Source of the DNA: a virus
Taxonomy: Duplodnaviria; Heunggongvirae; Uroviricota; Caudoviricetes
Strand: one strand, 5' to 3'
Length of the DNA stretch: 64,000 bases
Virus record (IMG/VR): IMGVR_UViG_2770939580_000003
Coordinates: 105,062 to 169,061 of that record
Part shown: positions 7,465 through 47,045 of the stretch, piece after piece
How positions within the stretch are numbered: position 1 is the first letter of the stretch
Layout: every line of letters starts with the position of its first letter
The notes under the pieces: model-generated
Told to the model about the DNA's origin: nothing
Seen by the model: the letters and a program-made list of their open reading frames with translations, nothing else
The model's database searches: none
Made by a program: the position numbers and the translations under genes

Positions 7465-7836
7465 CTACATAAACTGCATTGTAAATCGGTCAAATCTAAT
7501 TTCTGGATTGTTCAAATGAAGATTATAAATGGTCGTCGTATCATTACAATTAAACCTATCCATCTGCCATTTTGAAATAGGCTCTTGAAACAAGCGCTCT
7601 AAGGCAGTTTTATCATTAATATTATATGTATCATTAAACTCTTCGAAAGAGGCAAAGCGAGTTCTTTTAATCATGTCTTTTCTGTAGTCATACAAAAAAG
7701 AGTGCATAAACCCAGAAGATTTATCTTTGCATTTATCAATAAAAAAATCTAGATTACCTTGGAAAAGAAACGTAACCATGTTTAAAAAATCTCCAGCCTT
7801 CTTGTCAACACCTAGTAGATCAATTATTTGCTGCAT
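7465..7836 (-). CDS. hypothetical phage protein
   Basis: ORF with GAGGG RBS. Confidence 0.7.
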   Translation of the reverse strand: MQQIIDLLGVDKKAGDFLNMVTFLFQGNLDFFIDKCKDKSSGFMHSFLYDYRKDMIKRTRFASFEEFNDTYNINDKTALERLFQEPISKWQMDRFNCNDTTTIYNLHLNNPEIRFDRFTMQFM

Positions 7837-8019
7837 ATACTCAAACCCTCTCGTGATAAAAATGTATTTTCTGGGTGTAAATTATCTTATGTAACTATCA
7901 TAATCCATGTTTATACACTTGACAATCACTGTAAGTAGCCGACTTAAATCTGTTGACAGATGCATAATTATGGATTTACAGTCAAATTGATGTCGTACTT
8001 TGTCGAATATGATAACAGA

Positions 8020-8033
8020 AGAACTTATGTTCG
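8020..8033. promoter_or_regulatory. LexA (Cheo) box near the predicted start site of the tRNA-ssb-ATPase operon
   Basis: AGAACTTATGTTCG fits Firmicute GAAC-N4-GTTC; minus-strand TATAAT at 8039-8044. Confidence 0.7.
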
Positions 8034-8101: not shown

Positions 8102-8488
8102 TTATCTGCCAAACAGCTTTTTAATGTACTCTTTTACAAGACTCTCTCTTGGTTTGGAAATCGTTATGTACTTCTCTTTATCAGTATCGAAGTATACTTT
8201 TCCATTGTCATAATCTACGCTCTTCATTTTGGTTAAGTTCCCAAGCACACCTTTATCGGTCATGATCATACCATGTCTTTCACTCATTAAATCAAAGAAT
8301 GCATTATTGTTTGTACAATAGACGTACTCTCCATTTTCCGTATATATAACCACTCTATAATCTTTCTTTGTAAACATTTCTTTCTTACAATCTATAACAT
8401 CATCAACTTCAATCCATTCGGCCTCATCCTTAATGTTTTTACCGTCTCTCCTCTGCACCATAATTCTATCTCTAAACAATGCATTCAC
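8102..8488 (-). CDS. stand-alone LytTR DNA-binding protein (no receiver domain)
   Basis: LytTR-like pattern (IYTENGEY...TDKGVLGNLTKMKSVD...VYFD...ITIS); last gene of the agr-like cassette. Confidence 0.75.
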   Translation of the reverse strand: MNALFRDRIMVQRRDGKNIKDEAEWIEVDDVIDCKKEMFTKKDYRVVIYTENGEYVYCTNNNAFFDLMSERHGMIMTDKGVLGNLTKMKSVDYDNGKVYFDTDKEKYITISKPRESLVKEYIKKLFGR

Positions 8489-8501
8489 CTCATTTAAAAT
8501 C

Positions 8502-8534
8502 AGCTCCCCATCCCTACAAGAAGAACAGGGAGCT
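8502..8534 (-). terminator. stem-loop between agrD and lytTR (weak terminator or mRNA stabiliser)
   Basis: AGCTCCC-N19-GGGAGCT; only a short U tract. Confidence 0.45.
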
Positions 8535-8541
8535 TAATTTG

Positions 8542-8676
8542 TTACTTCATTTCTTCTGGTACTGGTTCATTATGAATCACAGTCCAGCTTGCGACATTGG
8601 CACCTACTGTCGCTACTGTCATAAATAAAAATCCTAGGGCAGTTACACCCATTCTAATCATTTTTGATTTAATCAT
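8542..8676 (-). CDS. agrD: AgrD-type cyclic lactone autoinducer peptide precursor (44 aa, not in ORF track)
   Basis: MIKSKMIRMGVTALGFLFMTVATVGANVASWTVIHNEPVPEEMK; GGGAGGTGA RBS; start overlaps the agrB stop. Confidence 0.85.
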   Translation of the reverse strand: MIKSKMIRMGVTALGFLFMTVATVGANVASWTVIHNEPVPEEMK

Positions 8677-9211
8677 TCTTTTCACCTCCCTTCAAGCGAA
8701 TGAGCAGGAGGGACTGAACTAATAGAGCCGCACAAATTAGATAGTCATTTAACAAAAAACTCACTATTATCATGCCTATAGATATCAACTTTAAGTACTT
8801 AAAATGCTCCTTGAGAATCTTAGTTTGGTTCTCGATGTTCGACGGTGCGAAGATTGCCACCAACCCTAAACTTAATAAATTCATAAGCAGTGTGTAGTCA
8901 CTTAAAAGATATCCAAACTTCGCAATAAGAGCGATTAAAATGGTTGAAATAACAAGACATACTTCAGGTTTTTTAGCGTGATACCCACCAGAAACCATCC
9001 TTAAAGATGAGAAAGCAACTAAGCATATTATTACTTCGCTAACGATATTTAGTAATAAGCCGATAATCAATAATAGTACTACAGGCGCAATGTTTGATAT
9101 TAAGAATTTGATACCGTATCTCGTTATGCCTAATGGTGGCATTTCATCTGGAAATTTTTCAACCAGCCTAGTTGATATTCGTGTGGCGAAGCTATCAATC
9201 ATACATTCCAC
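8669..9211 (-). CDS. agrB: AgrB autoinducer-processing membrane peptidase (likely start 9202)
   Basis: LRMVSGGYHAKKPEVC with His-X6-Cys catalytic pair; FAPS motif; multi-TM. Confidence 0.92.
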   Translation of the reverse strand: MECMIDSFATRISTRLVEKFPDEMPPLGITRYGIKFLISNIAPVVLLLIIGLLLNIVSEVIICLVAFSSLRMVSGGYHAKKPEVCLVISTILIALIAKFGYLLSDYTLLMNLLSLGLVAIFAPSNIENQTKILKEHFKYLKLISIGMIIVSFLLNDYLICAALLVQSLLLIRLKGGEKND

Positions 9212-9842
9212 TCTTTTCTTTTTTAATATCTATGTACATTAAATTTATTAAACACACTCCCCAGAACAAAATAGTCAGATATATATTTTCAACTGTTTTC
9301 ACATTGTACAACAGCGCCATAATTACAATGGCAATGAGTGTGCTAAAAATGTTAATTTTATTTAACTTAATTTTGAAACTATAATCGTAGGACATAGTAC
9401 TGAACCAGATTCTTTTATGTCTTAGGATAAGTGTAAGAACTATTAAAAATCCATTTGCTAACAGTTGCACTAGTGAGCCAAACTCACTTGATGCTTGTGT
9501 AAAGTTTAATCCTGAACTAAGCATAAACAATGCAACAACTGAGAACTGAGCCACTATTTGTGCCACAAAACCATAACATGCCAACTTGAAACTCTCCCAT
9601 AATTTTATTCTAAAATAGAAAGTTAATGATAATACCAATAAGGCAAAACATAGCACTGGAACAAATCCTAAAATTGTCTCATACCCTTTAAGAAAGAAAG
9701 TTCCTATTGAAATTATTAAATTAGTTACTAGAATCTCTTTCCAGTAGTCTTTAAAGCTGATCTTGAAACAGCCAAATGCAAACATAAATATTGTTATTCC
9801 ATCCATTAGACTCATTAGCGCATACACGATATCGTTCTTCAT
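9195..9842 (-). CDS. AgrC-sensor-like polytopic membrane protein lacking a histidine-kinase domain
   Basis: 215 aa, about 6-7 hydrophobic segments; ends just after the last TM; stop overlaps the agrB start. Confidence 0.75.
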   Translation of the reverse strand: MKNDIVYALMSLMDGITIFMFAFGCFKISFKDYWKEILVTNLIISIGTFFLKGYETILGFVPVLCFALLVLSLTFYFRIKLWESFKLACYGFVAQIVAQFSVVALFMLSSGLNFTQASSEFGSLVQLLANGFLIVLTLILRHKRIWFSTMSYDYSFKIKLNKINIFSTLIAIVIMALLYNVKTVENIYLTILFWGVCLINLMYIDIKKEKSGMYD

Positions 9843-9878
9843 CTTACTGTCTCCATCCTGTTATGTAGTATTTAGTAC

Positions 9879-9935
9879 ACAAAGATAATATGTATTTCTT
9901 GATTTAAATATAACATGGTCTCTATCAAGAGTCAA
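9879..9935 (-). promoter_or_regulatory. sigmaA promoter of the agr-like operon with an inverted downstream operator-like motif
   Basis: TTGACT(9930-35)-17-TATATT(9907-12); ACAAAGATAATA on the opposite strand at 9879-9890. Confidence 0.7.
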
Positions 9936-9978
9936 CAGTTAAAACAACAAAAAAAGAATAAAGTTTGCACTCTATTCT

Positions 9979-11013
9979 TTAAAGGTTGTACACTTTTTTA
10001 ATTGTTGGAACATTCAAGAATTCTGACTTCATGGAACCGTAATGATACAGGCCATTTTTATCCTTTTTAATGTTGTAATGATCACAAACAATACTGTATT
10101 CTTCTTCTTCTAGCTTCCCACGTTCAACGTATAGATCCTTTGCCATCTTAAGCATTCCGCTATTTCGAACATTTACAATAGTTAGAAGGGGTAAGTTGTG
10201 CCACTCAGCAATCTTAGATAGTCTCATTGTTACTAAGTAAATTGATGCTGGTTCTTCAACGCCTTGTTTGATACTAGAATTCACAGCGGATCTAATAATA
10301 TAGTCGTTATCAATCAAATTATTGTGAGTAACTTTTGTACTGGGTACTAAGTTGCCATTGTTCTTAATATATTTATCTTCTTTATTTGCTATCCTGAGGA
10401 TATTATACAGATATCCTGTTATAGTTATCTCTCTGATTTCTTGACCATTACGAGATTCGTTAAATAATTTTATCTTATATTTATCTATTTCATCTGTCTC
10501 AGTTATATGTTCCATTTTCATACTGAGTAATTCACTATTCTCTCGTCCCATTATACCTTCAAACAATGATTGAACCACGGCTTTATCTTGAAAGTTTAAG
10601 CAGCCTTCTACTACGTTTTCTATATCCTCTTCAGTAAATAAAGTTTGTCGACTATCATCCACAAACTGACTATACCATTCAAAAGATGTTACCGCATTTA
10701 GTGGATTAATATTATCTTTACGTAAGTCTTGTTCTATGGCCCAACCTATGTAGTTGTTGATAATACTTCCAGCCTGTTGCAAAGATGATACTTTTGTAGA
10801 CTTTAATAAATATAGAAATTGCGATATTTCTTGAAGATTAAAATCATATAGATCTTTATCAAGCTTTTTTTCCATTATAGAAACTCTTTTTAATACTCGA
10901 CCATATGCCTTTTTAGTAGCTTCGCTTAAATTTTGAAGATATCTGTCTTTTTGTTCTTTATTAAAAAATTCATCATCATATATTTTATTCACTCTTATCG
11001 CCTCCAAAAACAT
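9979..11013 (-). CDS. MrpR/SroF (YopR)-like lytic-cycle repressor, degenerate integrase fold
   Basis: KDLYDFNL.EI..FL..L and LFEGI.G...SEL patterns; HxxR replaced by VNVR; follows SroE-like gene. Confidence 0.8.
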   Translation of the reverse strand: MFLEAIRVNKIYDDEFFNKEQKDRYLQNLSEATKKAYGRVLKRVSIMEKKLDKDLYDFNLQEISQFLYLLKSTKVSSLQQAGSIINNYIGWAIEQDLRKDNINPLNAVTSFEWYSQFVDDSRQTLFTEEDIENVVEGCLNFQDKAVVQSLFEGIMGRENSELLSMKMEHITETDEIDKYKIKLFNESRNGQEIREITITGYLYNILRIANKEDKYIKNNGNLVPSTKVTHNNLIDNDYIIRSAVNSSIKQGVEEPASIYLVTMRLSKIAEWHNLPLLTIVNVRNSGMLKMAKDLYVERGKLEEEEYSIVCDHYNIKKDKNGLYHYGSMKSEFLNVPTIKKVYNL

Positions 11014-12304
11014 TTACAAAATAATCAAAAAGTTTCTCACGAATTCTTTTGTTGCCCGTAAGAGATTTCTTTGCATTCAAAAGTGGCACAAATTCATCAG
11101 CATTTTTACTAATAGTATCAATATACTTCTCTATTTCATCAAAATCAATTTCATTGTCTTGCATATATCGAGACAATACAATGTAGCCAATAAACATTAG
11201 TGGATGACCCATGAACTCGTTTTTTCTTTCATTGATGTTCTTTGAAAACTCATTGGGGTAACTACCTGCAAGATAAACAAAAAACTCGTTTAGATACTTT
11301 GATATCTTTATGACATCTAATTGTCTTTCAATTGTATAGGAACGATCAATTGCATATGACATAATATCAAAAGTTGTTAGATCTCCAGCTAAATAACTAA
11401 CTGTGCTGCCTGAAGCAATTTGCTTTCCGATTTCAGATTTACGCTGAAGGTCTGCTACTACTTTATCAGACATTCTTTCTTGTGCTAATTCTTTTCTTCT
11501 TTCTTTATTTAAAACATTGATTGTATTTAACTGACTAAAGAAACGTTTTGCAGTCTCTTCGTCATAAACTCTTATTGATAATATTTCGTGTAATTCAATG
11601 TCTGGATTAATACTGAGAGCAGCGATAAACCCTTGTAATCGATGAAAACCATCGAGAATAGATACAATTGCACCATCATTTATGGTTAATGATTTAGAGT
11701 TAGTGTCATAACTAACAGGCTCAACTTCAGTTGAGTACACGTTCAAAGTAATCATGTCCTCAAAGTATTGATTTTCAGACACTTTGGATGCAATTCTTTT
11801 CACACTAGTCTTATTAACGATTGGTGTTTTGACTATTCCACCTGATTTATTTTCTTTATATGTTACTCCACGTTGAGTCTCTTCCTCATAAATTATGAGC
11901 TGGCTCTCAACCATTTTTACTAATTCTTTAATATTGATTTTAGTAACATAGCTATCGAACTTAATTTCAATAACCTCTTTAATTGTGAGCGGTAAATATA
12001 ATTTATATTGATCTTTATCTTTTAATGTACGTTCAGCATCTCTTATTTCTCTTACACCAAAATACGTTTCTGGATTGGGATTTGAATTGTCTGCATCATG
12101 CATTGCAGATACTATACCTATCAAGTAGTGTGCATCAAATTCAGATATCACTTCTTCATTCTGGGAGATTTTTTGCACCATACCAAAAGGTACATTATAA
12201 TCAGCAAGTTTTAAATTAAGCTCATATTGTTTTTGTCTGGAATTTTGAATCAACTTTAAATTTTCTAATACTTCTTTTTCAATAATGTTACGATCTACTT
12301 TCAT
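10985..12304 (-). CDS. SroE (YopQ)-like DGQHR/DndB-domain protein
   Basis: ILDGFHRL motif; directly upstream of the MrpR-like gene as in SPbeta. Confidence 0.75.
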   Translation of the reverse strand: MKVDRNIIEKEVLENLKLIQNSRQKQYELNLKLADYNVPFGMVQKISQNEEVISEFDAHYLIGIVSAMHDADNSNPNPETYFGVREIRDAERTLKDKDQYKLYLPLTIKEVIEIKFDSYVTKINIKELVKMVESQLIIYEEETQRGVTYKENKSGGIVKTPIVNKTSVKRIASKVSENQYFEDMITLNVYSTEVEPVSYDTNSKSLTINDGAIVSILDGFHRLQGFIAALSINPDIELHEILSIRVYDEETAKRFFSQLNTINVLNKERRKELAQERMSDKVVADLQRKSEIGKQIASGSTVSYLAGDLTTFDIMSYAIDRSYTIERQLDVIKISKYLNEFFVYLAGSYPNEFSKNINERKNEFMGHPLMFIGYIVLSRYMQDNEIDFDEIEKYIDTISKNADEFVPLLNAKKSLTGNKRIREKLFDYFVNVFGGDKSE

Positions 12305-12325
12305 ATGTACTCACCTCTAACAAAC

Positions 12326-12380
12326 ATTATAGCACATATAGTTAAAAATAATACATGTACCAATATCAAAGTGCTATAAT
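12326..12380. promoter_or_regulatory. inverted repeat forming opposed -10 boxes upstream of the sroE-mrpR operon
   Basis: ATTATAGCAC-N35-GTGCTATAAT; AAAAATAATAC in the spacer. Confidence 0.55.
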
Positions 12381-12457
12381 TTCGAGGAAAAATGTTAAGA
12401 AACTATTATGAATATACTACACAATTCAACCCATTGCAAAATAAGAAAAAGCCTCAA

Positions 12458-12664
12458 TTAGAGACTTTTATCATTTAACCATTTATGTAAATCTAAATTT
12501 GTTTTTACTACTTTATTCTCCTGTATGTCGTAAATTCTATAACCATTAAACAAAAAATTATTTAGCTCATGTGGTTTTTCCGTTCCTAAATTGAGACACT
12601 TCCAAGTTTCAACTTTCAACTCTTTATCATAATCTATAAGCTTCATTAACCAGTATCTCTTCAT
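12458..12664 (-). CDS. hypothetical protein
   Basis: ORF with AGGTGGAG RBS, downstream of mazF. Confidence 0.7.
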   Translation of the reverse strand: MKRYWLMKLIDYDKELKVETWKCLNLGTEKPHELNNFLFNGYRIYDIQENKVVKTNLDLHKWLNDKSL

Positions 12665-12733
12665 GCTCCACCTACCTTAACAATAGTATGTAAATTATAT
12701 TTGTGTTAATGGTATGTGACAAGCGGTAATAAA

Positions 12734-13108
12734 TTACAACGAAAGAGATAACTGTAGTGCCTTGTTAATTGCATTCCCAAAGTGTCTAGGTAGTTCGGCA
12801 ATCTTAAAATCAAGCTGATCTTTTGATACAGTCATTATCTGTTCCAACAAAATGATACTATCGTCATATAGCCCAATCTCTTCTTTTTCTACTTTTACAT
12901 GTGTAGGCATAGGCTTTTTAACTCTGCTTGTTACTGGTGCAACAATTACTACTGGACTATATTTGTTACCCATATCATTTCCTAATACTACACATGGTCT
13001 CTCTCCGCTCTGTACACTTCCTTTGTTTCTACCTAAGTTCACATTCCACATATCTAAGCGCTTTACGTCTTTCATCATTCGCTCCATTGCTACCGCCATC
13101 TCAAACAC
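12734..13108 (-). CDS. mazF: MazF/PemK-family endoribonuclease, no adjacent antitoxin
   Basis: GSVQSGERPCVVLGND...SPVVIVAPVTS...THV...DSIILLEQI.TVSK. Confidence 0.92.
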   Translation of the reverse strand: MFEMAVAMERMMKDVKRLDMWNVNLGRNKGSVQSGERPCVVLGNDMGNKYSPVVIVAPVTSRVKKPMPTHVKVEKEEIGLYDDSIILLEQIMTVSKDQLDFKIAELPRHFGNAINKALQLSLSL

Positions 13109-13213: not shown

Positions 13214-13227
13214 GGAACGTTTGTTCT
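13214..13227. promoter_or_regulatory. LexA (Cheo) box in the mazF/rsfA divergent region
   Basis: GGAACGTTTGTTCT (GAAC-N4-GTTC) next to TTGTTT-17-TATAAT on the minus strand. Confidence 0.65.
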
Positions 13228-13338
13228 GTCAAGAACTTTTAGTAGCCGACTAAAATATAACTTGCTTCGGCGAATAACCTATTGACTTTTAGGATATATA
13301 TGGTATTAAGACTAATCAAATCAATTTGAGGTGTGTAA

Positions 13339-13821
13339 ATGAAAAGAAAAGATGGATGGAACGTCGATGATGATAATTTATTAGCTAGCACGGTACTAAT
13401 GTACATCGAATCTGGCAAGACTCAGTTGAAAGCCTTTGAGGATGTAGGATTAAAACTTAGTAGAACCTCTGCTGCCTGTGGGTTCAGGTGGAATTCAACT
13501 GTAAGGCATAGATATATCAAAAGTATTGCTGAGGCAAAGACTCATAAAATAAAAAGAAATTATAAAAAGACGTATTCAAACGAAGAGCTGTCAATTGATA
13601 GTATTATCTCATGCCTTCTGGCTCTTAAGGATGATCTACAGCGCGCTGAGATAGAGAAGAGTATAATTAGTAAGAAGATACAGAACGTATCATTAGAAAT
13701 CAATGCTAGACGTTCTGAAAGGCATTTAGATGCTTTGGCAAATAAAGAAGCCCTTTCATTATTATTGTCTAAAGCTGCTGAGCTTGGGCTGTTTGAACAT
13801 AACAAAAAACCCGCCATTTAA
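13339..13821 (+). CDS. RsfA-family transcriptional regulator
   Basis: DGW..DDD.LLASTVL.YI..G.TQLKAFE.VG..LSRTSAACGFRWNSTVR signature. Confidence 0.9.
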   Translation: MKRKDGWNVDDDNLLASTVLMYIESGKTQLKAFEDVGLKLSRTSAACGFRWNSTVRHRYIKSIAEAKTHKIKRNYKKTYSNEELSIDSIISCLLALKDDLQRAEIEKSIISKKIQNVSLEINARRSERHLDALANKEALSLLLSKAAELGLFEHNKKPAI

Positions 13822-15195: not shown

Positions 15196-15582
15196 TTACT
15201 CCCCAGAATGCTTATTCACCGTTATCGAATAATGGTATATCTCAATATCCTCTGCAATGAACTCTCTTCGTTGAGCTGCTAACAACGTCTCATACATGTT
15301 CTGTCGTCCTACAGGATTGTCGGTATGTATATATATCTTATCTGCCCTCAATCCATGCTCACAGAAATACTTAACCAAGTCATATCCATTGGGTAACTCT
15401 ACACCATCTACATCCTCGCCCAGATCGTGGTCTAATGTAAGAATAGCCACCTTTCTAGTCTCAAGTATATGTATGGCTTCATAATATGTACGAGCGACCA
15501 CGAAGCCTTCTGGACAGTCTCTGAGGTCATCTACGTAGAGGTTAATCTTATCTGTCATGGTCGCACATCCTTCCATATACAA
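15196..15582 (-). CDS. cyclic-phosphate-processing receiver-domain protein
   Basis: LYVDDLR.CPEGF...LTLDHDLG...GYD...HTDNPVGR. Confidence 0.8.
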   Translation of the reverse strand: MYMEGCATMTDKINLYVDDLRDCPEGFVVARTYYEAIHILETRKVAILTLDHDLGEDVDGVELPNGYDLVKYFCEHGLRADKIYIHTDNPVGRQNMYETLLAAQRREFIAEDIEIYHYSITVNKHSGE

Positions 15583-17619: not shown

Positions 17620-17955
17620 CTACTTGGAATTGTTCAATAGTACGTCTATAGCTTTAAATCCCAACTTCGACACGGGTGCCTGTTTCCCGTTTTCAAATTC
17701 AGCAGACATTGAAATGTTGTTCAGTCTCTTTACTTTGATTGGATTGACGTAAGTGGCTCTATCCGATTTCACAAAATATCCCTTTACGTTTAAGTGTCTG
17801 ATCAATTCAGAGTTGCTTAACATCTGATAATCATTTTCCTCTGTAGTCACTTTAAGAACCGATCCATTTATTCCACCTCTAGTAACATAGAAAATATCAG
17901 AAACATTTACGGTTTTAACTTCATTTGTCGCAGTATCAATTACAGGGACTATCAT
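17620..17955 (-). CDS. second stand-alone LytTR-domain protein
   Basis: DIFYV...F.KSDRATYVNPIKVKRL...AEFENGKQAPVSK LytTR pattern. Confidence 0.8.
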   Translation of the reverse strand: MIVPVIDTATNEVKTVNVSDIFYVTRGGINGSVLKVTTEENDYQMLSNSELIRHLNVKGYFVKSDRATYVNPIKVKRLNNISMSAEFENGKQAPVSKLGFKAIDVLLNNSK

Positions 17956-20298: not shown

Positions 20299-20340
20299 AT
20301 TGTACATCATATTTATTGAATTGTAAAGTATTATCTTTGT
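20299..20340 (-). promoter_or_regulatory. sigmaA promoter with conserved upstream motif
   Basis: ACAAAGATAATAC-TTTACA-17-TACAAT. Confidence 0.8.
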
Positions 20341-30232: not shown

Positions 30233-30274
30233 ATCATAACACCTAGTTACATTGTTGTCTAGTATTATCTTTGT
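30233..30274 (-). promoter_or_regulatory. sigmaA promoter with conserved upstream motif
   Basis: ACAAAGATAATAC-TAGACA-17-TATGAT. Confidence 0.8.
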
Positions 30275-39804: not shown

Positions 39805-39846
39805 ATTATACCATTTAACTATATAAATTGAAAGTATTATCTTTGT
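39805..39846 (-). promoter_or_regulatory. sigmaA promoter with conserved upstream motif
   Basis: ACAAAGATAATAC-TTTCAA-17-TATAAT. Confidence 0.75.
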
Positions 39847-40785: not shown

Positions 40786-43026
40786 TTAATTAATCTCTCT
40801 TAGCAGGTTGCACAGATGAGTATTGCGTCTCTTACTTTCTACTTTTCTGATGGCAAAATTTAGTGTCTCTGCCTGAGTTAAGAATATACACTTAGATACA
40901 CTTCTCGTTATTGCTGTATAAATCAAGTTGGCACTAATCTGAAACTTATTGGATCTATCCACTACTATTAATGTTGCTTCACTAGAACTTCCTTGACTCT
41001 TATGTATCGTTAATGCCCAAGCAGATAGTAATTGAGCTGCTAAACCTATGTCTAATCTAACCAGTTGATCATCAAACTGAATTATAATTCCTTTTCTTTC
41101 ACTCTCCGCTAATTCATCGTCGCTATTCTTTTTATCATCTTCCAGCTTTATATCGATCACTTTCCCTGAATCTCCATTTACTATATCTGTTCCTTCTTCA
41201 GACATGTTTGCTATCTGGTACATATTAACTGTATTAAGGATGTAGTCTCCAACTCTAATTAAACCATCATATCCATATTCATGTTGTTTCTTTGTTGAAT
41301 CAAATGGATTGACTTGCTCTTGTATGTGCTTATTTAATTCTACGGTTCCTAACTTCCCTTTCTTAGTTGGAGATAGTACCATAATATCTTCAGGCTTATA
41401 AGTATTCAACAACAAATTATAATAGTGTTTATATCCCTTTTCAATCTGTACCTGATCAACACAGTGCAGTAAAAAGTCATTTCCAAACAACTGCTTGCCT
41501 TCAAAGTCATTATTTACAATTTGTTTACCTTCTCTTATCTTAGTGGCAACATCAAGGATGCCTCCATCACCTTGTCTAAACACGATGTCCAATTTAGTCA
41601 TTGGAATTGCTCCGCTTACAATAGCATCGTGAAGAAAGTTTCCTGCCTGTACAGATAATAACTGAAAATCATCACCAACGAATAATATTCTTGTATTCGG
41701 ATTTTTAATCTTAGAGAGTAATGATGATAGTATAAATACATCGGTCATACCGGATTCATCAATAATCACAAAGTCTTCATGGATCTCTAACATCATCTCT
41801 TCTTCCTTATCCATACCAAAACCAATTCTTCTATGTATAGTTTGAGCATTTACTCCTGTGTAGGTACGAGTAACTTTCGCTGCTTTTGCAGATGGGGATA
41901 GTAATACATATGTGAGTCCTAATTTATTTAGCAAATCTACAAGGAACTTTTGAAGCTTACTTTTTCCTGTTCCTGCGTACCCAATAAGTAAGTTGACTGA
42001 ATATTTCTGAATACTTCTAAAGAAATCCTTTTGTTGATATGTAAGTCCTTTGGGTATATCTTCCTTATACGTTGCTTCAATCTCCAGAATGTACTTATCA
42101 GGATCAAAGTTTAGTGAAATTCCATTTTCCAACATTTCCGCTAATCGTTTCGCTATATACTTTTCAGCGTTGTAAGTTCTAGTAAGAGAAACTTTGTCAT
42201 CTACAAATACTAATCCATCTGTATCATATAGAAAATTCTCAATCATTACTTCAGCAAGTTCTAGTTTCTCAGAAGCGTTTCTCAGCAACTCATCTTTTAA
42301 CATATATGTGTGTCCTTGTTGTTGGTTGTCATCAATGGTGAATCTTATCCCATATTTGATTCTATGTGGATCATCTTTCTTGAAACCCATTAACTGTGCT
42401 ATCTTATCAGCTCTTTTAAATCCAAATCCAGATAATTGAGTAAGCTCATATGGGTTGTCTTCAATTTTCTGGATGGCTAATTCCTTTGATCCAAATGTTT
42501 TCTCAAGTTTTAAAATAATGTCATATGTTATGCCGTACTTTCCCAATCGACTCAATACATCTCTATAGGCTATATTCTCAAGAATTCTATCTCTTATCTT
42601 GTTATATGTCTTTGATCCAAACTGTTTAACTTTCTCATATTCAAATTTATTATCTACAATCAGCTTAACAATATCCTCGTTTGGATAGGTCTTATATACT
42701 TCCTTTAACTGTAGATCCGTCATAAGTGTCGCTAAAAACGCCTTCTGACCCTCCATTGTCTCAGGAACATCCTGATATATCGATAACACGTTATAACTTG
42801 CTCCATATTTTGCATCAACTTTTTCAAGTTCAATTTGAGCTTCATACTCCACACCTAATTCTAGTCGTTGCATGACCCCTTTAACGCTAAGATTCCCGTA
42901 TGAGTTTAAAAGCACATTTGGGCTATTTGTGTTACATGAGTATATCCTAAAATCATTTTTGTTATCTGCTTCTTTTCTTGGGAACATCATTTTCTCTGGT
43001 GTTAACTTCAATTCAATAATACTCAA
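40786..43026 (-). CDS. recD2: RecD2-like ATP-dependent SF1 helicase
   Basis: HhH repeats (GFGFKRADKIA), GYAGTGKS, IIDESGM, LVGDDFQL-like, TIHKSQGS, YTAITR. Confidence 0.9.
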   Translation of the reverse strand: MSIIELKLTPEKMMFPRKEADNKNDFRIYSCNTNSPNVLLNSYGNLSVKGVMQRLELGVEYEAQIELEKVDAKYGASYNVLSIYQDVPETMEGQKAFLATLMTDLQLKEVYKTYPNEDIVKLIVDNKFEYEKVKQFGSKTYNKIRDRILENIAYRDVLSRLGKYGITYDIILKLEKTFGSKELAIQKIEDNPYELTQLSGFGFKRADKIAQLMGFKKDDPHRIKYGIRFTIDDNQQQGHTYMLKDELLRNASEKLELAEVMIENFLYDTDGLVFVDDKVSLTRTYNAEKYIAKRLAEMLENGISLNFDPDKYILEIEATYKEDIPKGLTYQQKDFFRSIQKYSVNLLIGYAGTGKSKLQKFLVDLLNKLGLTYVLLSPSAKAAKVTRTYTGVNAQTIHRRIGFGMDKEEEMMLEIHEDFVIIDESGMTDVFILSSLLSKIKNPNTRILFVGDDFQLLSVQAGNFLHDAIVSGAIPMTKLDIVFRQGDGGILDVATKIREGKQIVNNDFEGKQLFGNDFLLHCVDQVQIEKGYKHYYNLLLNTYKPEDIMVLSPTKKGKLGTVELNKHIQEQVNPFDSTKKQHEYGYDGLIRVGDYILNTVNMYQIANMSEEGTDIVNGDSGKVIDIKLEDDKKNSDDELAESERKGIIIQFDDQLVRLDIGLAAQLLSAWALTIHKSQGSSSEATLIVVDRSNKFQISANLIYTAITRSVSKCIFLTQAETLNFAIRKVESKRRNTHLCNLLREIN

Positions 43027-44120
43027 TTACTCATCTCTCCTTTATTTTGAATGAACTCTTGTGCCTCTCTTTTTATTTGGGACAATGTTCCATGATTTTG
43101 TTTCATAATCAAATCAATGAGTTCTTGCTTAGTAAGTTGCTCAAGAACAGAGTCATCAATTTTATCCTCTATTCTCAAACTTATACTGTTTGAATAGTCT
43201 TCGTTTATATGGCGGTAGTAAGTCTCAGTCGTAGAGATATTTGAGTGATTAAGATGTTTCTTTGCCTCTTCTAAAGTACCAAAGCTCGCAGCCACGTTTC
43301 TGAAACTGTGAAACTTGACATTTCTATCAGAAGAGATATTCATTTTTTCTTTCAACTTGTTCATCATTGTCTGTATAGTATTGTTGGATAAATGAAATAT
43401 CTTATTGTCCTTGTATTTGTGATAGTATTTCTGGTCTTTGATTTTCAAGAGTTCATTGTACAGATCAACCGATATCGGCATTGTATGTCTTTTATTTCCC
43501 TTCCCTATAGTTGTAACTAAATAGTTTTCTGCATTAGGATTCTTTTTTATGTCATCCCACTCTAGCGACAAAATCGAACTTTTTCTAAAACTAGTAGTGT
43601 AAGCAGTTCTAATTAGAGCAGATTTTTCTTGTCCTTGTTTTCTGTCATCATGAACAATTCTAGCCATTTCTTCTGCTTCATTCAGATATAGTGGGCCAGT
43701 GTGTTCTGAATCATCAGAAAGCATATCGACTTTTACATGCTTCGAGTTGATGGGATACTCGTTTATCTCCAGAAACTCATATAAACTTTGGATCGGAGCT
43801 ATGTAATTGTTTATGGTGATATTGGTGTACTCAGCTTCATGATCTTTTAGATGCTTTTGATATCGAATCATATCCGCATTGCGAACTTTCAAATCATCAA
43901 CGGTCAAATATTCTATGTCTTTGTTGACATTGTGCAACCATAAAAAGAAATTTCGAATACTCCTCTCATAGTTTTTTTGTGTGTGTTTGCTCTCGAACTT
44001 GCCTATGAAAGTCATAATGTCTTCATAAACTCTTCTACTATACAACTGAATTACATTTGCTTCGCTTTTCATAAAGCATTCCTCCTTCGACCTCTTGATT
44101 TCATTATATATGATAAGCAT
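43023..44120 (-). CDS. tyrosine recombinase/integrase family protein (likely start 44072; possibly SroD/YopP-like)
   Basis: complete R (SFRK), K (GKGNK), HxxR (HSFR), H (LNH), Y (TETYY) set. Confidence 0.85.
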   Translation of the reverse strand: MLIIYNEIKRSKEECFMKSEANVIQLYSRRVYEDIMTFIGKFESKHTQKNYERSIRNFFLWLHNVNKDIEYLTVDDLKVRNADMIRYQKHLKDHEAEYTNITINNYIAPIQSLYEFLEINEYPINSKHVKVDMLSDDSEHTGPLYLNEAEEMARIVHDDRKQGQEKSALIRTAYTTSFRKSSILSLEWDDIKKNPNAENYLVTTIGKGNKRHTMPISVDLYNELLKIKDQKYYHKYKDNKIFHLSNNTIQTMMNKLKEKMNISSDRNVKFHSFRNVAASFGTLEEAKKHLNHSNISTTETYYRHINEDYSNSISLRIEDKIDDSVLEQLTKQELIDLIMKQNHGTLSQIKREAQEFIQNKGEMSN

Positions 44121-44169
44121 TTAAAACACAACGATAATACTTGACAAAGTTTAAATATAAACTTATATT
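44103..44169. promoter_or_regulatory. back-to-back promoters for yonO (+) and recombinase (-) sharing the conserved motif
   Basis: plus: ACAACGATAATAC-TTGACA-17-TATATT; minus: TTGTGT-17-TATAAT. Confidence 0.75.
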
Positions 44170-44228
44170 GTATCTACGGACATCAAATCCGAATAAACGA
44201 AGGCTACTAAGCCGAAAGGGAAGACTTA

Positions 44229-44429
44229 ATGAGAAAAGGAAAACAGGGAAATCATTCAACTATCACGTGGGAGGATCGATACTACGATGGATACGGCGAT
44301 GACTGGGATTATTATGATGAAAGAATGGTATCAGAGTATATGAAACAAGGAATTGATGATTGTATCGAATACATAGAAGTGGCAGTAGATCAAGAAGTCT
44401 TGTGGTTGAAAAACAATACACATAGATAA
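44229..44429 (+). CDS. small acidic hypothetical protein
   Basis: ORF with AAAGGGA RBS, first gene of the yonO operon. Confidence 0.6.
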   Translation: MRKGKQGNHSTITWEDRYYDGYGDDWDYYDERMVSEYMKQGIDDCIEYIEVAVDQEVLWLKNNTHR

Positions 44430-44468
44430 TACATATTATAAAATAAAAAATCAGCAAAGGGTGTTTGA

Positions 44469-47045
44469 ATGGCATTGGATAAGCAAGTCTACATATATAG
44501 CGTTGACACAAGCGCTTTCTTCACAAGAAAGGAAAGCTTACTTCGTAAAGAAATCAACAAAGCAAAATTAAAAAAAGAAACAGAGAAAGTTAAAGAGCTT
44601 GATAAGAGTTTTCGTAATATCATCGATTCTAATGTACATTTAAAACGTAAACTTAATCCAAATAGTTTATCCATAGCCAATAAAGTCTCATTATTTGAGT
44701 CCTCACTCACAAGAACGCTGGGACTTAAAGAAAACAATACATACGAAGATGTAATTATTGTAGAGACACACTACTACAGCATCTTTGACAGTCTCATTGA
44801 GAACGGCTTTACTCTTAATGATGAAGAGTATGTACCATTTACAGCTTCAGCAGGACAAATTAGAACTAAAAAAACCGTATTTATGAAAAAAAACACTTGG
44901 GATGAGGTTAAGCAAACTCTGATGTGTGGTCTCTCAGAGGACAGAATTAACAATCATTACGATATTAGCAAGAATGATAAAAGACTATACGGTGTAAGTA
45001 TAAATAAATACTTGGCATATTTAGCGCTATGCTCAAGCGCAACTGACTTATGGGAAGGATTCAACATAGATCGTTCAATTGTTGTAGATGATTTCGAAAC
45101 TTCGATCAATACAACAGTTGATTATGTAGATGATGTCACCTACACAGTTAGTCGCAGAAAAATGGATGTACCCATAAATCATACCGATGGTTGCGGAATG
45201 ATTTTACCGAAGAAAAGTAAAAAAGCATTCATGGTTCGCCTACCATGGGTTAAAGGATTGCTAGTCCCATTCCCCTTCAATAAATTCGTCGATGAGAAGA
45301 ATAGGTTCTTGATAGACATTTATGGTAAGAAACACGATGTAATTAAAGAAAAAATAGAGGTTATTTTTACCAAGAGTCAATTTAAGATGTGGAAGTATTA
45401 TCAAAGCTGGGATGAATATAAGTCTCTATATAAGCAACACAATTGTCATGCAAGCTTAACCAATACAGAAGAGGATGAATTAAGCTCAGCGCGACTTTGC
45501 TATCAAATGTTGCAAACTCTGACCCTTATCTCCGAAGAAGAATTAGATAAATTAGTATCAGTTACGCGTAATGAAATTCAAGAAACGGTCAGCAATCCAG
45601 AGGAAATGCTCAACTTATTGGGGGCAACTAAGGGAAAGTTTGAAGATAAAAACAATTTACAACAATCATTATACATATATCCTGAACTTTTATTGGACCC
45701 ACATGTAAAAAACAAACTTAAGGAAGCAAAAGCTAGTTTGATGAGGAAGGTGTATACAGGAAAAGTTAAGGTCGATGGTTGTTACACTTTTATCGCTCCA
45801 GACTTGTATGCTTTTTGTGAGTATTTATTTGAGGGAAATAGCAATCCAATGGGTATCTTGAAGAATGGAGAAGTGTCATGCGTTGCAATTCAGAATGGCG
45901 AGAAAGTTGATTGTTTGCGGAGCCCTCATCTTTATAAGGAGCATGCTGTTAGATTAAATGTTAAAAATGATCAAACTCAAGAATGGTTCATTAGCAAAAG
46001 CGTTCATACCTCTATTCACGATCCCATCAGTAAAATACTTATGTTTGATTGTGATGGTGATAAGGTAACAGTAAGCAATGATAATACATTAGTAAGTGTT
46101 GCCGAAAGGAATATGGCAGACGTTGTACCTCTGTACTATGACATGAAAAAAGCGCCAGCAGAAAAAATCAACAGAAATAGCATAAAGCAGAATCTAAAAA
46201 GAGCCTTTAGTGGCAACATTGGTATCATTAGTAATGATATAACGAAACTCTGGAATAGCGATTCCGTAGATATTGATCTTGTTAAAATTAGAACGATGGA
46301 AAATAACTTTGAAATTGACGCTGCTAAGACAAACTATAAGCCAGTTCGACCAAAGCATATCAAGCAATTATTTAAACCATTCAATAAAATGAAAATGCCA
46401 CACTTCTTTTCTTATGAAAAATACAGACTCAAACCACAGGACAGAAAAAACAAGAAATCTAAGCGAACCACTGAGCCTTGGACTAACACTACAACAGTTA
46501 ACAGACTTAAAGGGATGTTTCCAGATGTCCGTATTAGATTTAAAACAGTGTCCGACAAGTATGAGTTCGACTATAAGAACATGATACACCAAGAAAGAAC
46601 AAAGGATGATTTATACTACACCATACTAGATAAGTATAAAGAGTTAAATGATATTAAGTGGATGCTGTCTTCTAGAAATAAAAGTAGTGACATTAACAAT
46701 GCCGACCACCTCCCTGTTTATAGCTACATAAGAAATGAGCTTTTGAAAATACATAATGATCCATACTATATTGCAGATGTAATTATTGAATATCTCTATA
46801 GTGGATCAAACACAGGATATAAAACAACTCTTTGGTCTAGTTTCGGAGACATAATTGTCGATAATCTTAAAAAAAATCTTGAGTCTAGGATAAAAACATG
46901 TGAAAGATGCAATACAGTTTTTTCAAATGTACGAGACAAGAGCACAAACTCTAGGAAGTATTGTGATTCATGCTCTTTGGATGTAAGAAAAGATAAAGTT
47001 AGAGAAAATGTGAAAAATTTAAGAAATAAGAAGAATATCATATAA
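44469..47045 (+). CDS. yonO: YonO-type single-subunit double-psi-barrel RNA polymerase
   Basis: catalytic FDCDGD; TDGCGM, RLPWVKG, LRSPHL motifs; C-terminal CxxC..CxxC. Confidence 0.92.
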   Translation: MALDKQVYIYSVDTSAFFTRKESLLRKEINKAKLKKETEKVKELDKSFRNIIDSNVHLKRKLNPNSLSIANKVSLFESSLTRTLGLKENNTYEDVIIVETHYYSIFDSLIENGFTLNDEEYVPFTASAGQIRTKKTVFMKKNTWDEVKQTLMCGLSEDRINNHYDISKNDKRLYGVSINKYLAYLALCSSATDLWEGFNIDRSIVVDDFETSINTTVDYVDDVTYTVSRRKMDVPINHTDGCGMILPKKSKKAFMVRLPWVKGLLVPFPFNKFVDEKNRFLIDIYGKKHDVIKEKIEVIFTKSQFKMWKYYQSWDEYKSLYKQHNCHASLTNTEEDELSSARLCYQMLQTLTLISEEELDKLVSVTRNEIQETVSNPEEMLNLLGATKGKFEDKNNLQQSLYIYPELLLDPHVKNKLKEAKASLMRKVYTGKVKVDGCYTFIAPDLYAFCEYLFEGNSNPMGILKNGEVSCVAIQNGEKVDCLRSPHLYKEHAVRLNVKNDQTQEWFISKSVHTSIHDPISKILMFDCDGDKVTVSNDNTLVSVAERNMADVVPLYYDMKKAPAEKINRNSIKQNLKRAFSGNIGIISNDITKLWNSDSVDIDLVKIRTMENNFEIDAAKTNYKPVRPKHIKQLFKPFNKMKMPHFFSYEKYRLKPQDRKNKKSKRTTEPWTNTTTVNRLKGMFPDVRIRFKTVSDKYEFDYKNMIHQERTKDDLYYTILDKYKELNDIKWMLSSRNKSSDINNADHLPVYSYIRNELLKIHNDPYYIADVIIEYLYSGSNTGYKTTLWSSFGDIIVDNLKKNLESRIKTCERCNTVFSNVRDKSTNSRKYCDSCSLDVRKDKVRENVKNLRNKKNII

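Follow-up and report, generated by a model that had tools for sequence, protein, structure and literature searches.

The 64-kb stretch of viral DNA analysed here (the window, whose numbering is used throughout) corresponds to G000:C2:291643-355642, that is, to part of contig C2 of a 6.26-Mb genome with a guanine-cytosine (GC) content of 47%, and the closest relatives of its proteins all come from Paenibacillus. It lies within a stretch of 32-37% GC located at ~230 to 390 kb of the contig. Because this ~160-kb low-GC stretch carries terminase, helicase, recombinase and integrase genes, we consider it to be a large prophage (35% GC, against 47% for the genome). Our subject is a block of minus-strand genes in the window, comprising a mazF toxin gene, a small conserved gene, the SPbeta-type repressor pair sroE-mrpR and a four-gene agr-type cassette devoid of a kinase, together with the two LexA boxes that flank the block and the gene that follows it. 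All the genes that a preliminary description of this region had named were found where it had placed them, on the minus strand. A nucleotide search with the whole mazF-to-LytTR block against 50,697 phage records gave no match, and a literature search found no description of a mazF/sroE-mrpR/kinase-less agr arrangement. The components of the region, in the direction of transcription, are as follows:

13215..13226, no strand assigned: LexA (Cheo) box 1, GAACGTTTGTTC, in the divergent rsfA-like/mazF promoter region
12734..13108, minus strand: phage MazF/PemK endoribonuclease toxin gene (PF02452, E = 1.8e-25; phrog_1936)
12458..12664, minus strand: conserved gene for a 68-amino-acid (aa) protein after mazF, with family members in relatives
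10985..12304, minus strand: sroE/yopQ homologue, DndB-like, DGQHR-type (PF14072, E = 4.8e-10; phrog_5732, E = 2.2e-97)
9979..11013, minus strand: mrpR/sroF homologue, integrase-fold master repressor (PF22822 and PF22823)
9843..9978, minus strand: intergenic control region from mrpR to TM215, with a hairpin, a promoter and an inverted motif copy
9195..9842, minus strand: TM215, a 215-aa multi-helix membrane protein (AlphaFold 2 model, mean predicted local distance difference test (pLDDT) 80.8)
8669..9211, minus strand: AgrB-type membrane peptidase (PF04647, E = 8e-25, over the cut-off)
8542..8676, minus strand: AgrD-type precursor, 44 aa from an ATG behind GGGAGGTG (TIGR04223, 25.1 bits, cut-off 19)
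8102..8488, minus strand: receiver-less LytTR DNA-binding protein of 128 aa (AlphaFold 2 model, pLDDT 88.7)
8021..8032, no strand assigned: LexA box 2, GAACTTATGTTC, immediately behind an extended -10 promoter on the minus strand
7465..7836, minus strand: 123-aa gene under LexA box 2, with family matches in MrpR loci

The repressor pair and the kinase-less agr-type cassette

The MrpR homologue is ~33% identical to phi3T_97 and scores 84.2 bits with PF22822 (E = 1e-23) and 60 bits with PF22823 (E = 3.4e-16), against a curated cut-off of 27 for each; both the N-terminal core-binding domain and the degenerate catalytic domain are present. Directly upstream, and overlapping mrpR by 29 nt, lies sroE, the product of which is 32% identical to phi3T_96 (YopQ/SroE) over 379 aa (E = 3e-55) and, judged by this similarity, is the second lysogeny factor of SPbeta-type phages. 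The domain and identity evidence for both proteins bears out the earlier proposal that the SroE/SroF (YopQ/MrpR) core is kept in this phage. An assignment of the phage itself to Spbetavirus was rejected, as its terminase gives no SPbeta match; the terminase is ~28% identical over half its length to those of Bacillus phages PBC4 and Stills.

A 13-bp motif, ACAAAGATAATAC, occurs in the window at 21 sites when up to two mismatches are allowed, compared with 4.65 expected. Most copies abut the -35 element of phage promoters and are oriented with transcription, and on these grounds the motif appears to be an analogue of the SPBRE and Phi3TRE operators, which are bound by MrpR/SroF (PMC10516654). 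By this analogy, ACAAAGATAATAC is likely to be the operator of the MrpR master repressor. Two copies fall in the divergent region (44122-44470) beside the integrase gene:

20328-20340, 30262-30274, 39834-39846 and 44128-44140: examples among the 21 sites of ACAAAGATAATAC
43023-44120, minus strand: tyrosine integrase gene (PF00589), where leftward and rightward gene blocks diverge

The first product of the cassette, TM215, is modelled as a bundle of membrane helices only, from which kinase domains are absent. An exhaustive phmmer search of 1.84 billion representative sequences placed its family in 31 clusters, all with proteins of 171-236 aa and none fused to a kinase. The fold is similar to that of the membrane part at the N terminus of GHKL/PF14501 (AgrC/ComD-type) kinases, with template-modelling (TM) scores by query of 0.53-0.76 among AFDB clusters and 0.68-0.69 in the ESM Atlas. 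A TM215 hidden Markov model gave no match to full AgrC proteins, and tblastn with TM215 found nothing in the 50,697 phage records.

The AgrB homologue has an H-x6-C dyad in the segment GGYHAKKPEVC of its translation, and we take these histidine and cysteine residues to be catalytic by comparison with AgrB of Staphylococcus aureus. The precursor ends in ...VA-SWTVI-HNEPVPEEMK; when aligned on the VPxEL tail, its predicted ring consists of the five residues SWTVI and would be closed through the serine to form a lactone. Ring sequences in relatives read SWTVI, SWTIV, SWTIL, SWAAL, SWTLI, SAWFI and SLAWV, and each of them precedes an (E/P)VPxE(L/M)K tail. By its sequence, AgrD is a constant scaffold with varying putative specificity positions.

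The last protein of the cassette has a weak Pfam LytTR score that stays under the cut-off (E = 0.003). The AlphaFold model, for which 14 relatives were used, retrieves LytTR domains as all of its top 13 PDB matches, the best being AgrA (4g4k_A, E = 8e-6, TM score by target 0.80). With 128 aa, and 119-127 aa in relatives, the protein is too short to include a receiver domain. Its start possibly lies a few codons inside the called open reading frame (ORF), and a weak hairpin (8534-8502) is found just upstream of the gene. In every cassette examined, TM215 and the LytTR gene accompany AgrB and AgrD, albeit in two gene orders.

The phage encodes a second stand-alone LytTR protein, of 111 aa (17620-17955, minus strand; PF04397, 29.8 bits, over the cut-off), which is conserved in two related loci (L009 and L010) and adjoins a 130-aa gene whose product is not a membrane protein. 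A stand-alone receiver-type protein of the cREC_REC family (15196-15582, minus strand; PF20274, E = 3.8e-30) is likewise encoded upstream of the rsfA-like gene in L008, L009, L010 and L014; it could supply one of the bare LytTR proteins with a receiver in trans.

The cassette shares with canonical agrBDCA loci (of Staphylococcus, Listeria and Clostridia, and L047-L051 of Paenibacillaceae) the H-x6-C dyad of AgrB, the acidic VPxEL tail and five-residue ring of AgrD, a LytTR output that matches AgrA best and a membrane sensor module with structural resemblance to that of HPK10-type kinases. It differs from them in predicted ring closure through Ser rather than Cys, in the gene order sensor-B-D-LytTR and in being phage-borne. 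Furthermore, unlike canonical agr, the cassette contains no kinase gene, with neither the DHp and ATPase (HATPase_c_5) domains of an AgrC kinase nor the receiver domain of AgrA, and therefore appears to have no phosphorelay. The host genome lacks a classical agrBDCA locus, and its only two AgrB genes are both found in kinase-less cassettes.

Pairing of a LytTR regulator with a membrane inhibitor is a described signalling class (PMC6193735). Its members HdrRM and BrsRM of Streptococcus mutans likewise combine a receiver-less LytTR protein with a co-encoded membrane protein, but their operons contain no peptide synthesis genes, and their membrane inhibitors are smaller than, and unrelated to, TM215. 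The agr3 locus of the Clostridioides difficile phage phiCDHM1 is similar in that a temperate phage carries agrB, agrD and a sensor gene, but its sensor is a full-length AgrC kinase and a LytTR protein is missing (PMC3901668), the reverse of the present cassette with its LytTR output and no kinase. The closest counterpart in gene content is gp44-gp47 of Brevibacillus phage Abouo (also present in Davies and Emery), where the same four genes occur in the same order, namely, those for a 222-aa membrane protein, an AgrB 30% identical to ours, a 42-aa peptide ending in PEIPEELKKRV and a 122-aa protein, and where the cassette also resides in the lysogeny module next to the integrase. However, the 45-kb Abouo encodes an integrase and XRE/cI-type regulators, lacks MrpR/SroE and has no MazF nearby. 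Agr-like genes in 'Paenibacillus phages', probably meaning Abouo, Davies and Emery, were noted by Hargreaves et al. (2014) without functional work (PMC3901668).

The preliminary description presented the region from mazF to the LytTR gene as a single co-oriented 5-kb block. The genes are indeed co-oriented, but a single operon was ruled out by promoter-like and terminator-like signals within the block. A strong promoter-like site (12722-12694) follows mazF ahead of the 68-aa gene, which is itself followed by a conserved terminator-like hairpin (12469-12447), and a conserved promoter region precedes sroE. After mrpR, a terminator-like hairpin with a T-run (~9978-9949) is followed by the cassette promoter, TTGACT-17-TATATT (9935-9907), which is conserved in relatives, and by an inverted copy of ACAAAGATAATAC (9879-9891) ~16 nt downstream of the cassette -10 element. 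By these signals, the transcription units are mazF, the 68-aa gene, sroE-mrpR and the agr-type cassette.

Linkage of the cassette to mrpR and absence of arbitrium

Relatives of the locus were reached through the LytTR protein (58-71% identity) and through TM215 (39, 30, 29, 26 and 23% identity). In the nine relatives examined, the order mazF...sroE-mrpR-TM215-agrB-agrD-LytTR is kept wherever the context sufficed, down to 23% TM215 identity. The statement that an agr-type cassette and a phage MazF accompany the SroE/SroF core is thus upheld, and the arrangement is conserved in loci with TM215 identities of 23-39%.

A survey of 300 Paenibacillaceae species genomes recovered MrpR in 26 genomes, at 29 loci other than that of the window. 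The cassette adjoins mrpR at 6 of these 29 loci. Three of them (L022, L023 and L028) share the gene order of the window, and three (L018, L031 and L038, from G051, G110 and G292) are of a second type and have no perfect LexA boxes; the order is mrpR-agrB-TM215 in L018 and L031, and L038 has a membrane gene and a LytTR gene with no AgrB detected. In L031, a peptide gene (ring SAWFI) follows the membrane gene and precedes the LytTR gene. At L026, the homologue of the 123-aa gene stands almost directly after mrpR, suggesting that the cassette is an insertion between these two genes. In the MrpR phylogeny, loci with and without the cassette are intermingled within the DndB-plus-MrpR clade, and at least five changes in the presence of the cassette are forced by well-supported branches.

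The cassette is not confined to MrpR-type phages. It lies between the integrase and cI/cro-like genes in Abouo and at L056, and the cassette at L053 is located near a large serine recombinase and the small terminase subunit. Its tie to lysogeny control therefore rests on recurring position, as it is found in the lysogeny modules of unrelated phages.

The genome under study contains a second kinase-less cassette, at G000:C1:~445900-447600 (L005:919-2603; L011:9400-11084), which encodes a 214-aa membrane protein, a 179-aa AgrB, a 41-aa peptide (ring SLAWV) and a 123-aa LytTR-like protein. With a GC content like that of the host, it occupies one end of another prophage, where it is flanked by lysin, holin and tail genes to one side and, to the other, by an XRE pair with host genes beyond. 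In some Paenibacillaceae genomes there are several such cassettes without a kinase (L052 and L053); six AgrB matches were found in G197.

No arbitrium system was detected. AimR (PF22871) has no match in the 100%-complete genome, with a Bacillus subtilis control genome scoring as it should, RNPP_C has no match anywhere in the genome, and TPR_12 has none inside the prophage. Hence, the earlier observation that AimR/RRNPP-type genes are missing holds for the window, the prophage and, by the AimR and RNPP_C searches, the genome; an aim locus elsewhere, which could have offered a rival account of the decision, falls away with the failure to find AimR in the whole genome. Nor was AimR found in any of the 26 other MrpR-bearing Paenibacillaceae genomes. 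Although agr and aim cassettes do not occur together in the sampled loci, their mutual exclusivity is trivial, because 23 of the 29 MrpR loci have neither and AimR is present in none. In most phages, the MrpR switch runs without agr or aim. The cassette does not occupy the place of arbitrium either: in phi3T, arbitrium lies upstream of sroA-F, whereas the cassette lies downstream of mrpR.

SOS operators, MazF and the gene behind the cassette

The window contains exactly two perfect GAAC-N4-GTTC sites, against ~0.8 expected, and both lie just outside the block. On the minus strand, box 1 stands immediately after a TTGACA and ahead of a TTGTTT-17-TATAAT promoter-like site, and the extended -10 promoter next to box 2, TGTATAAT (8066-8039), reads into the 123-aa gene. 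A perfect box occupies the position of box 1 in L008, L009, L010, L023, L014, L015, L016 and L055, and that of box 2 in L008, L009, L010, L023, L014, L016 and L017. In L008, L009/L022, L010/L028 and L023, only two perfect boxes occur in ~20 kb, both at the orthologous positions; among the distant loci, both boxes recur in L014 and L016, that on the mazF side in L015 and L055, and the downstream one in L017. The half-sites are kept among the relatives and the N4 spacers vary, and the two positions are still occupied at TM215 identities of only 26-39%. Chance matches were ruled out by this conservation at orthologous positions, and since it extends over near and distant relatives, both boxes are predicted to be real SOS operators. 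The picture of a block bracketed by two LexA boxes is accurate insofar as the two sites flank it, but box 2 belongs to the neighbouring gene: judged by its placement, it is the operator of the 123-aa gene and not of the cassette.

Members of the 123-aa family are found 1.1-4.2 kb downstream of the mrpR start at 14 of the 29 other MrpR loci. This position recalls that of Sar, the small antirepressor that induces phi3T (phi3T_99) and SPbeta (YopT) prophages; the sar gene is located one ORF downstream of sroF and is controlled by a LexA box, Sar displaces SroF from DNA, and the Sar proteins of phi3T and SPbeta share <20% identity (preprint 10.1101/2025.11.27.690993). We hypothesize that, once the inserted cassette is discounted, the 123-aa gene is the positional and regulatory counterpart of sar; if so, the cassette is inserted exactly between the repressor and its putative antirepressor. 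The ESM Atlas model of the 123-aa protein is of poor quality.

At the other end of the block, the phage MazF shares 44% identity with the MazF encoded on the host chromosome, along the full length of the protein. No homologue of the host MazE was found among all ORFs of the prophage (best E = 0.49), and upstream of mazF lies a divergent promoter and no MazE-like gene. However, mazF does not appear to be a bare orphan, because the 68-aa gene follows it in near and divergent relatives: the family is present downstream of mazF in L008, L009, L010, L023, L014, L017 and L055, and L031 has a member upstream of the mrpR region. Residues R3, Y4, L9, W21, L34, F37, R43 and D46 are invariant in this family, which has no match to a known family and none among PDB sequences or in the ESM Atlas. 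The 68-aa protein is a candidate partner, or antitoxin, of MazF. In all type-i cassette loci that have the sroE-mrpR region in range, that region is still headed by mazF with its LexA box. In phi3T, AimX and YosL modulate the activity of host MazF within the arbitrium decision (PMC10769878), and a LexA-controlled phage MazF at the head of the repressor region would fit this theme, although a role in maintenance or defence is just as possible.

Box 1 lies in the intergenic region that mazF shares with a divergently transcribed gene of the RsfA/GerR family (sporulation-type Myb). The encoded protein scores 119.2 bits, just under the curated cut-off of 126.45, and the divergent rsfA-like gene is present in L008, L009, L010, L014, L016 and L055 as well. 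A phage-specific palindrome next to box 1, which recurs as an imperfect copy beside box 2, is a candidate operator for a dimeric regulator; L010 keeps the arms and changes the spacer, and the palindrome is not kept in distant loci. A direct repeat found once in the window, and conserved in L008-L010, lies between the SOS promoter and the second promoter (7925-7897) of the 123-aa gene. These features are:

13339..13821, plus strand: RsfA-family (Myb-like) regulator gene (TIGR02894, E = 1.8e-34)
13238..13254, no strand assigned: palindrome TTTAGT-N5-ACTAA, with the imperfect second copy at 7935-7949
7991..8006, minus strand: direct repeat TCGACA-N4-ACGACA

Possible roles of the cassette and of mazF in the MrpR switch

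What we regard as solid, as read from sequence, fold and comparison, is a conserved lysogeny-control region in which an SPbeta-type repressor pair, a putative MazF pair, two predicted SOS operators and a complete cassette lacking kinase and receiver occur together, without arbitrium. The region is like that of SPbeta/phi3T in having SroE and SroF/MrpR (~32-33% identity), a multi-copy promoter repeat, an involvement of MazF and an SOS box ahead of a small gene downstream of the repressor; it is unlike it in that aimR-aimP-aimX is missing, the cassette is downstream of the repressor and MazF is encoded by the phage rather than by the host. Accordingly, the interpretation offered in the preliminary description stands as regards the core, the cassette, MazF and the absence of AimR, and has to be given up as regards the position of arbitrium, the bracketing of the block by LexA boxes and any non-trivial exclusivity of agr and aim.

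We tentatively propose, as a call that falls a little short of even, that in this lysogeny-control region of the prophage an agr-type peptide circuit bears on the switch. In the mechanism envisaged, AgrB would process AgrD into a secreted five-residue Ser-lactone peptide with the ring SWTVI, and TM215 would sense this peptide and, without phosphotransfer, hold or release the LytTR protein, a mode of control suggested by the streptococcal LytTR regulatory systems, which use membrane inhibitors likewise. The freed LytTR protein would alter transcription at or near the switch, so that lysogen or phage density would bias lysogenisation or induction, the role that arbitrium has in SPbeta. DNA damage would enter through LexA at two promoters, that of mazF and that of the 123-aa gene after the cassette, the product of which may act as a Sar-like antirepressor that removes MrpR/SroF from DNA. 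MrpR itself probably binds the 13-bp motif beside ~20 promoters, and because an inverted copy lies downstream of the cassette promoter, the cassette is proposed to be under repressor control as well.

Several observations weigh against such a circuit. Where its output is concerned, a terminator-like hairpin sets the cassette apart as a transcription unit of its own; aligning the mrpR-TM215 spacers of four phages revealed no conserved LytTR-type direct repeats upstream of the cassette -35, where HdrRM and BrsRM typically have their autoregulatory repeats; and neither this alignment nor a repeat search of the window located a LytTR target site near the switch promoters. As for the sensor, hhalign of TM215 with the AgrC N-termini of five host agr loci of Paenibacillaceae gave a probability of 3.9%, and a fold search among Swiss-Prot models returned no meaningful match; given these empty profile and fold comparisons, 'AgrC-sensor-like' denotes structural and positional resemblance of TM215, not homology. 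The 123-aa protein shows no similarity to phi3T_99 (Sar) by hhalign, nor to any PDB sequence. Linkage is affected too: L008 and L014-L017 were picked through cassette proteins, which inflates the apparent linkage and the number of changes counted on the tree, and the cassette is next to mrpR at only the six loci described above, with the other 23 having neither agr nor aim. Finally, the region between integrase and repressor is the usual slot for lysogen-expressed accessory genes, and position alone therefore cannot separate control of the decision from lysogenic conversion.

Alternatively, the cassette may be an accessory module expressed by the lysogen (a moron) that signals between lysogens and governs host or exclusion functions, such as kin recognition, superinfection immunity or host physiology, rather than the switch. 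Consistent with such a role, the inserted cassette has a promoter of its own, preceded by a terminator-like hairpin, 23 of the 29 MrpR loci do without it, the second cassette of the genome is located at a prophage end beside lysis and host genes, LytTR target sites near the switch promoters were not found, and host-directed roles have been proposed for the agr genes of phiCDHM1 (Hargreaves et al., 2014; PMC3901668). Against it, the cassette recurs in three unrelated kinds of lysogeny module (MrpR-type, integrase with cI/cro-like genes, and XRE pair), lies exactly between the repressor and an SOS-controlled gene even at 23% TM215 identity, and has the promoter motif of the phage in its own promoter; we consider this explanation rather unlikely. 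It is also conceivable that the circuit is not self-contained, the AgrB/AgrD signal being read by host two-component systems or by the separate receiver of the phage, with TM215 acting as a transporter, immunity protein or processing helper. TM215 has no sequence homology to AgrC sensors, the phage does possess the cREC_REC protein and the second bare LytTR protein, and the host encodes several PF14501-scoring kinases and LytTR response regulators. Yet TM215 and the LytTR protein accompany AgrB and AgrD in every cassette, across varied phage backgrounds, two structure libraries return the sensor part of AgrC-type kinases as a match to the TM215 model, and the host is without a classical agr locus; such an open circuit thus seems quite improbable.

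The part played by mazF can be judged separately. Toxin-antitoxin cargo is common in prophages, and mazF with its 68-aa partner may simply be an SOS-induced toxin-antitoxin module for prophage maintenance or abortive infection, unrelated to the decision. The toxin is a true MazF, 44% identical to that of the host, and the conserved small gene downstream of it has promoter-like and terminator-like signals of its own, as would suit such a module. Conversely, mazF and its LexA box keep their place at the head of the sroE-mrpR region in the type-i cassette loci in range, and host MazF is part of the arbitrium decision pathway of phi3T (PMC10769878). A module of this kind is possible, if on the doubtful side. 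The fullest version of the switch proposal, in which the MrpR switch of a clade of large Paenibacillus phages is run by a phosphorylation-free agr circuit instead of arbitrium and is wired with an SOS-controlled MazF, its partner and an antirepressor, is in our view rather unlikely to be correct.

To our knowledge, arbitrium is the only established peptide system encoded by temperate phages to set lysogeny. The phages described here have the same kind of master repressor and no arbitrium, and an agr-type cassette is found again and again at the core of their switch. If the cassette does bear on that switch, communication between phages would have arisen on two or more occasions around a single type of repressor, and no kinase would be needed to read cyclic agr peptides, which would amount both to a second, chemically distinct phage-phage communication system and to a new agr signalling architecture. 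Four genes and a predicted lactone of five residues make for a compact system, and the conserved LexA boxes paired with mazF and with the gene behind the cassette provide a concrete model of how DNA damage may enter MrpR-type switches outside Bacillus.

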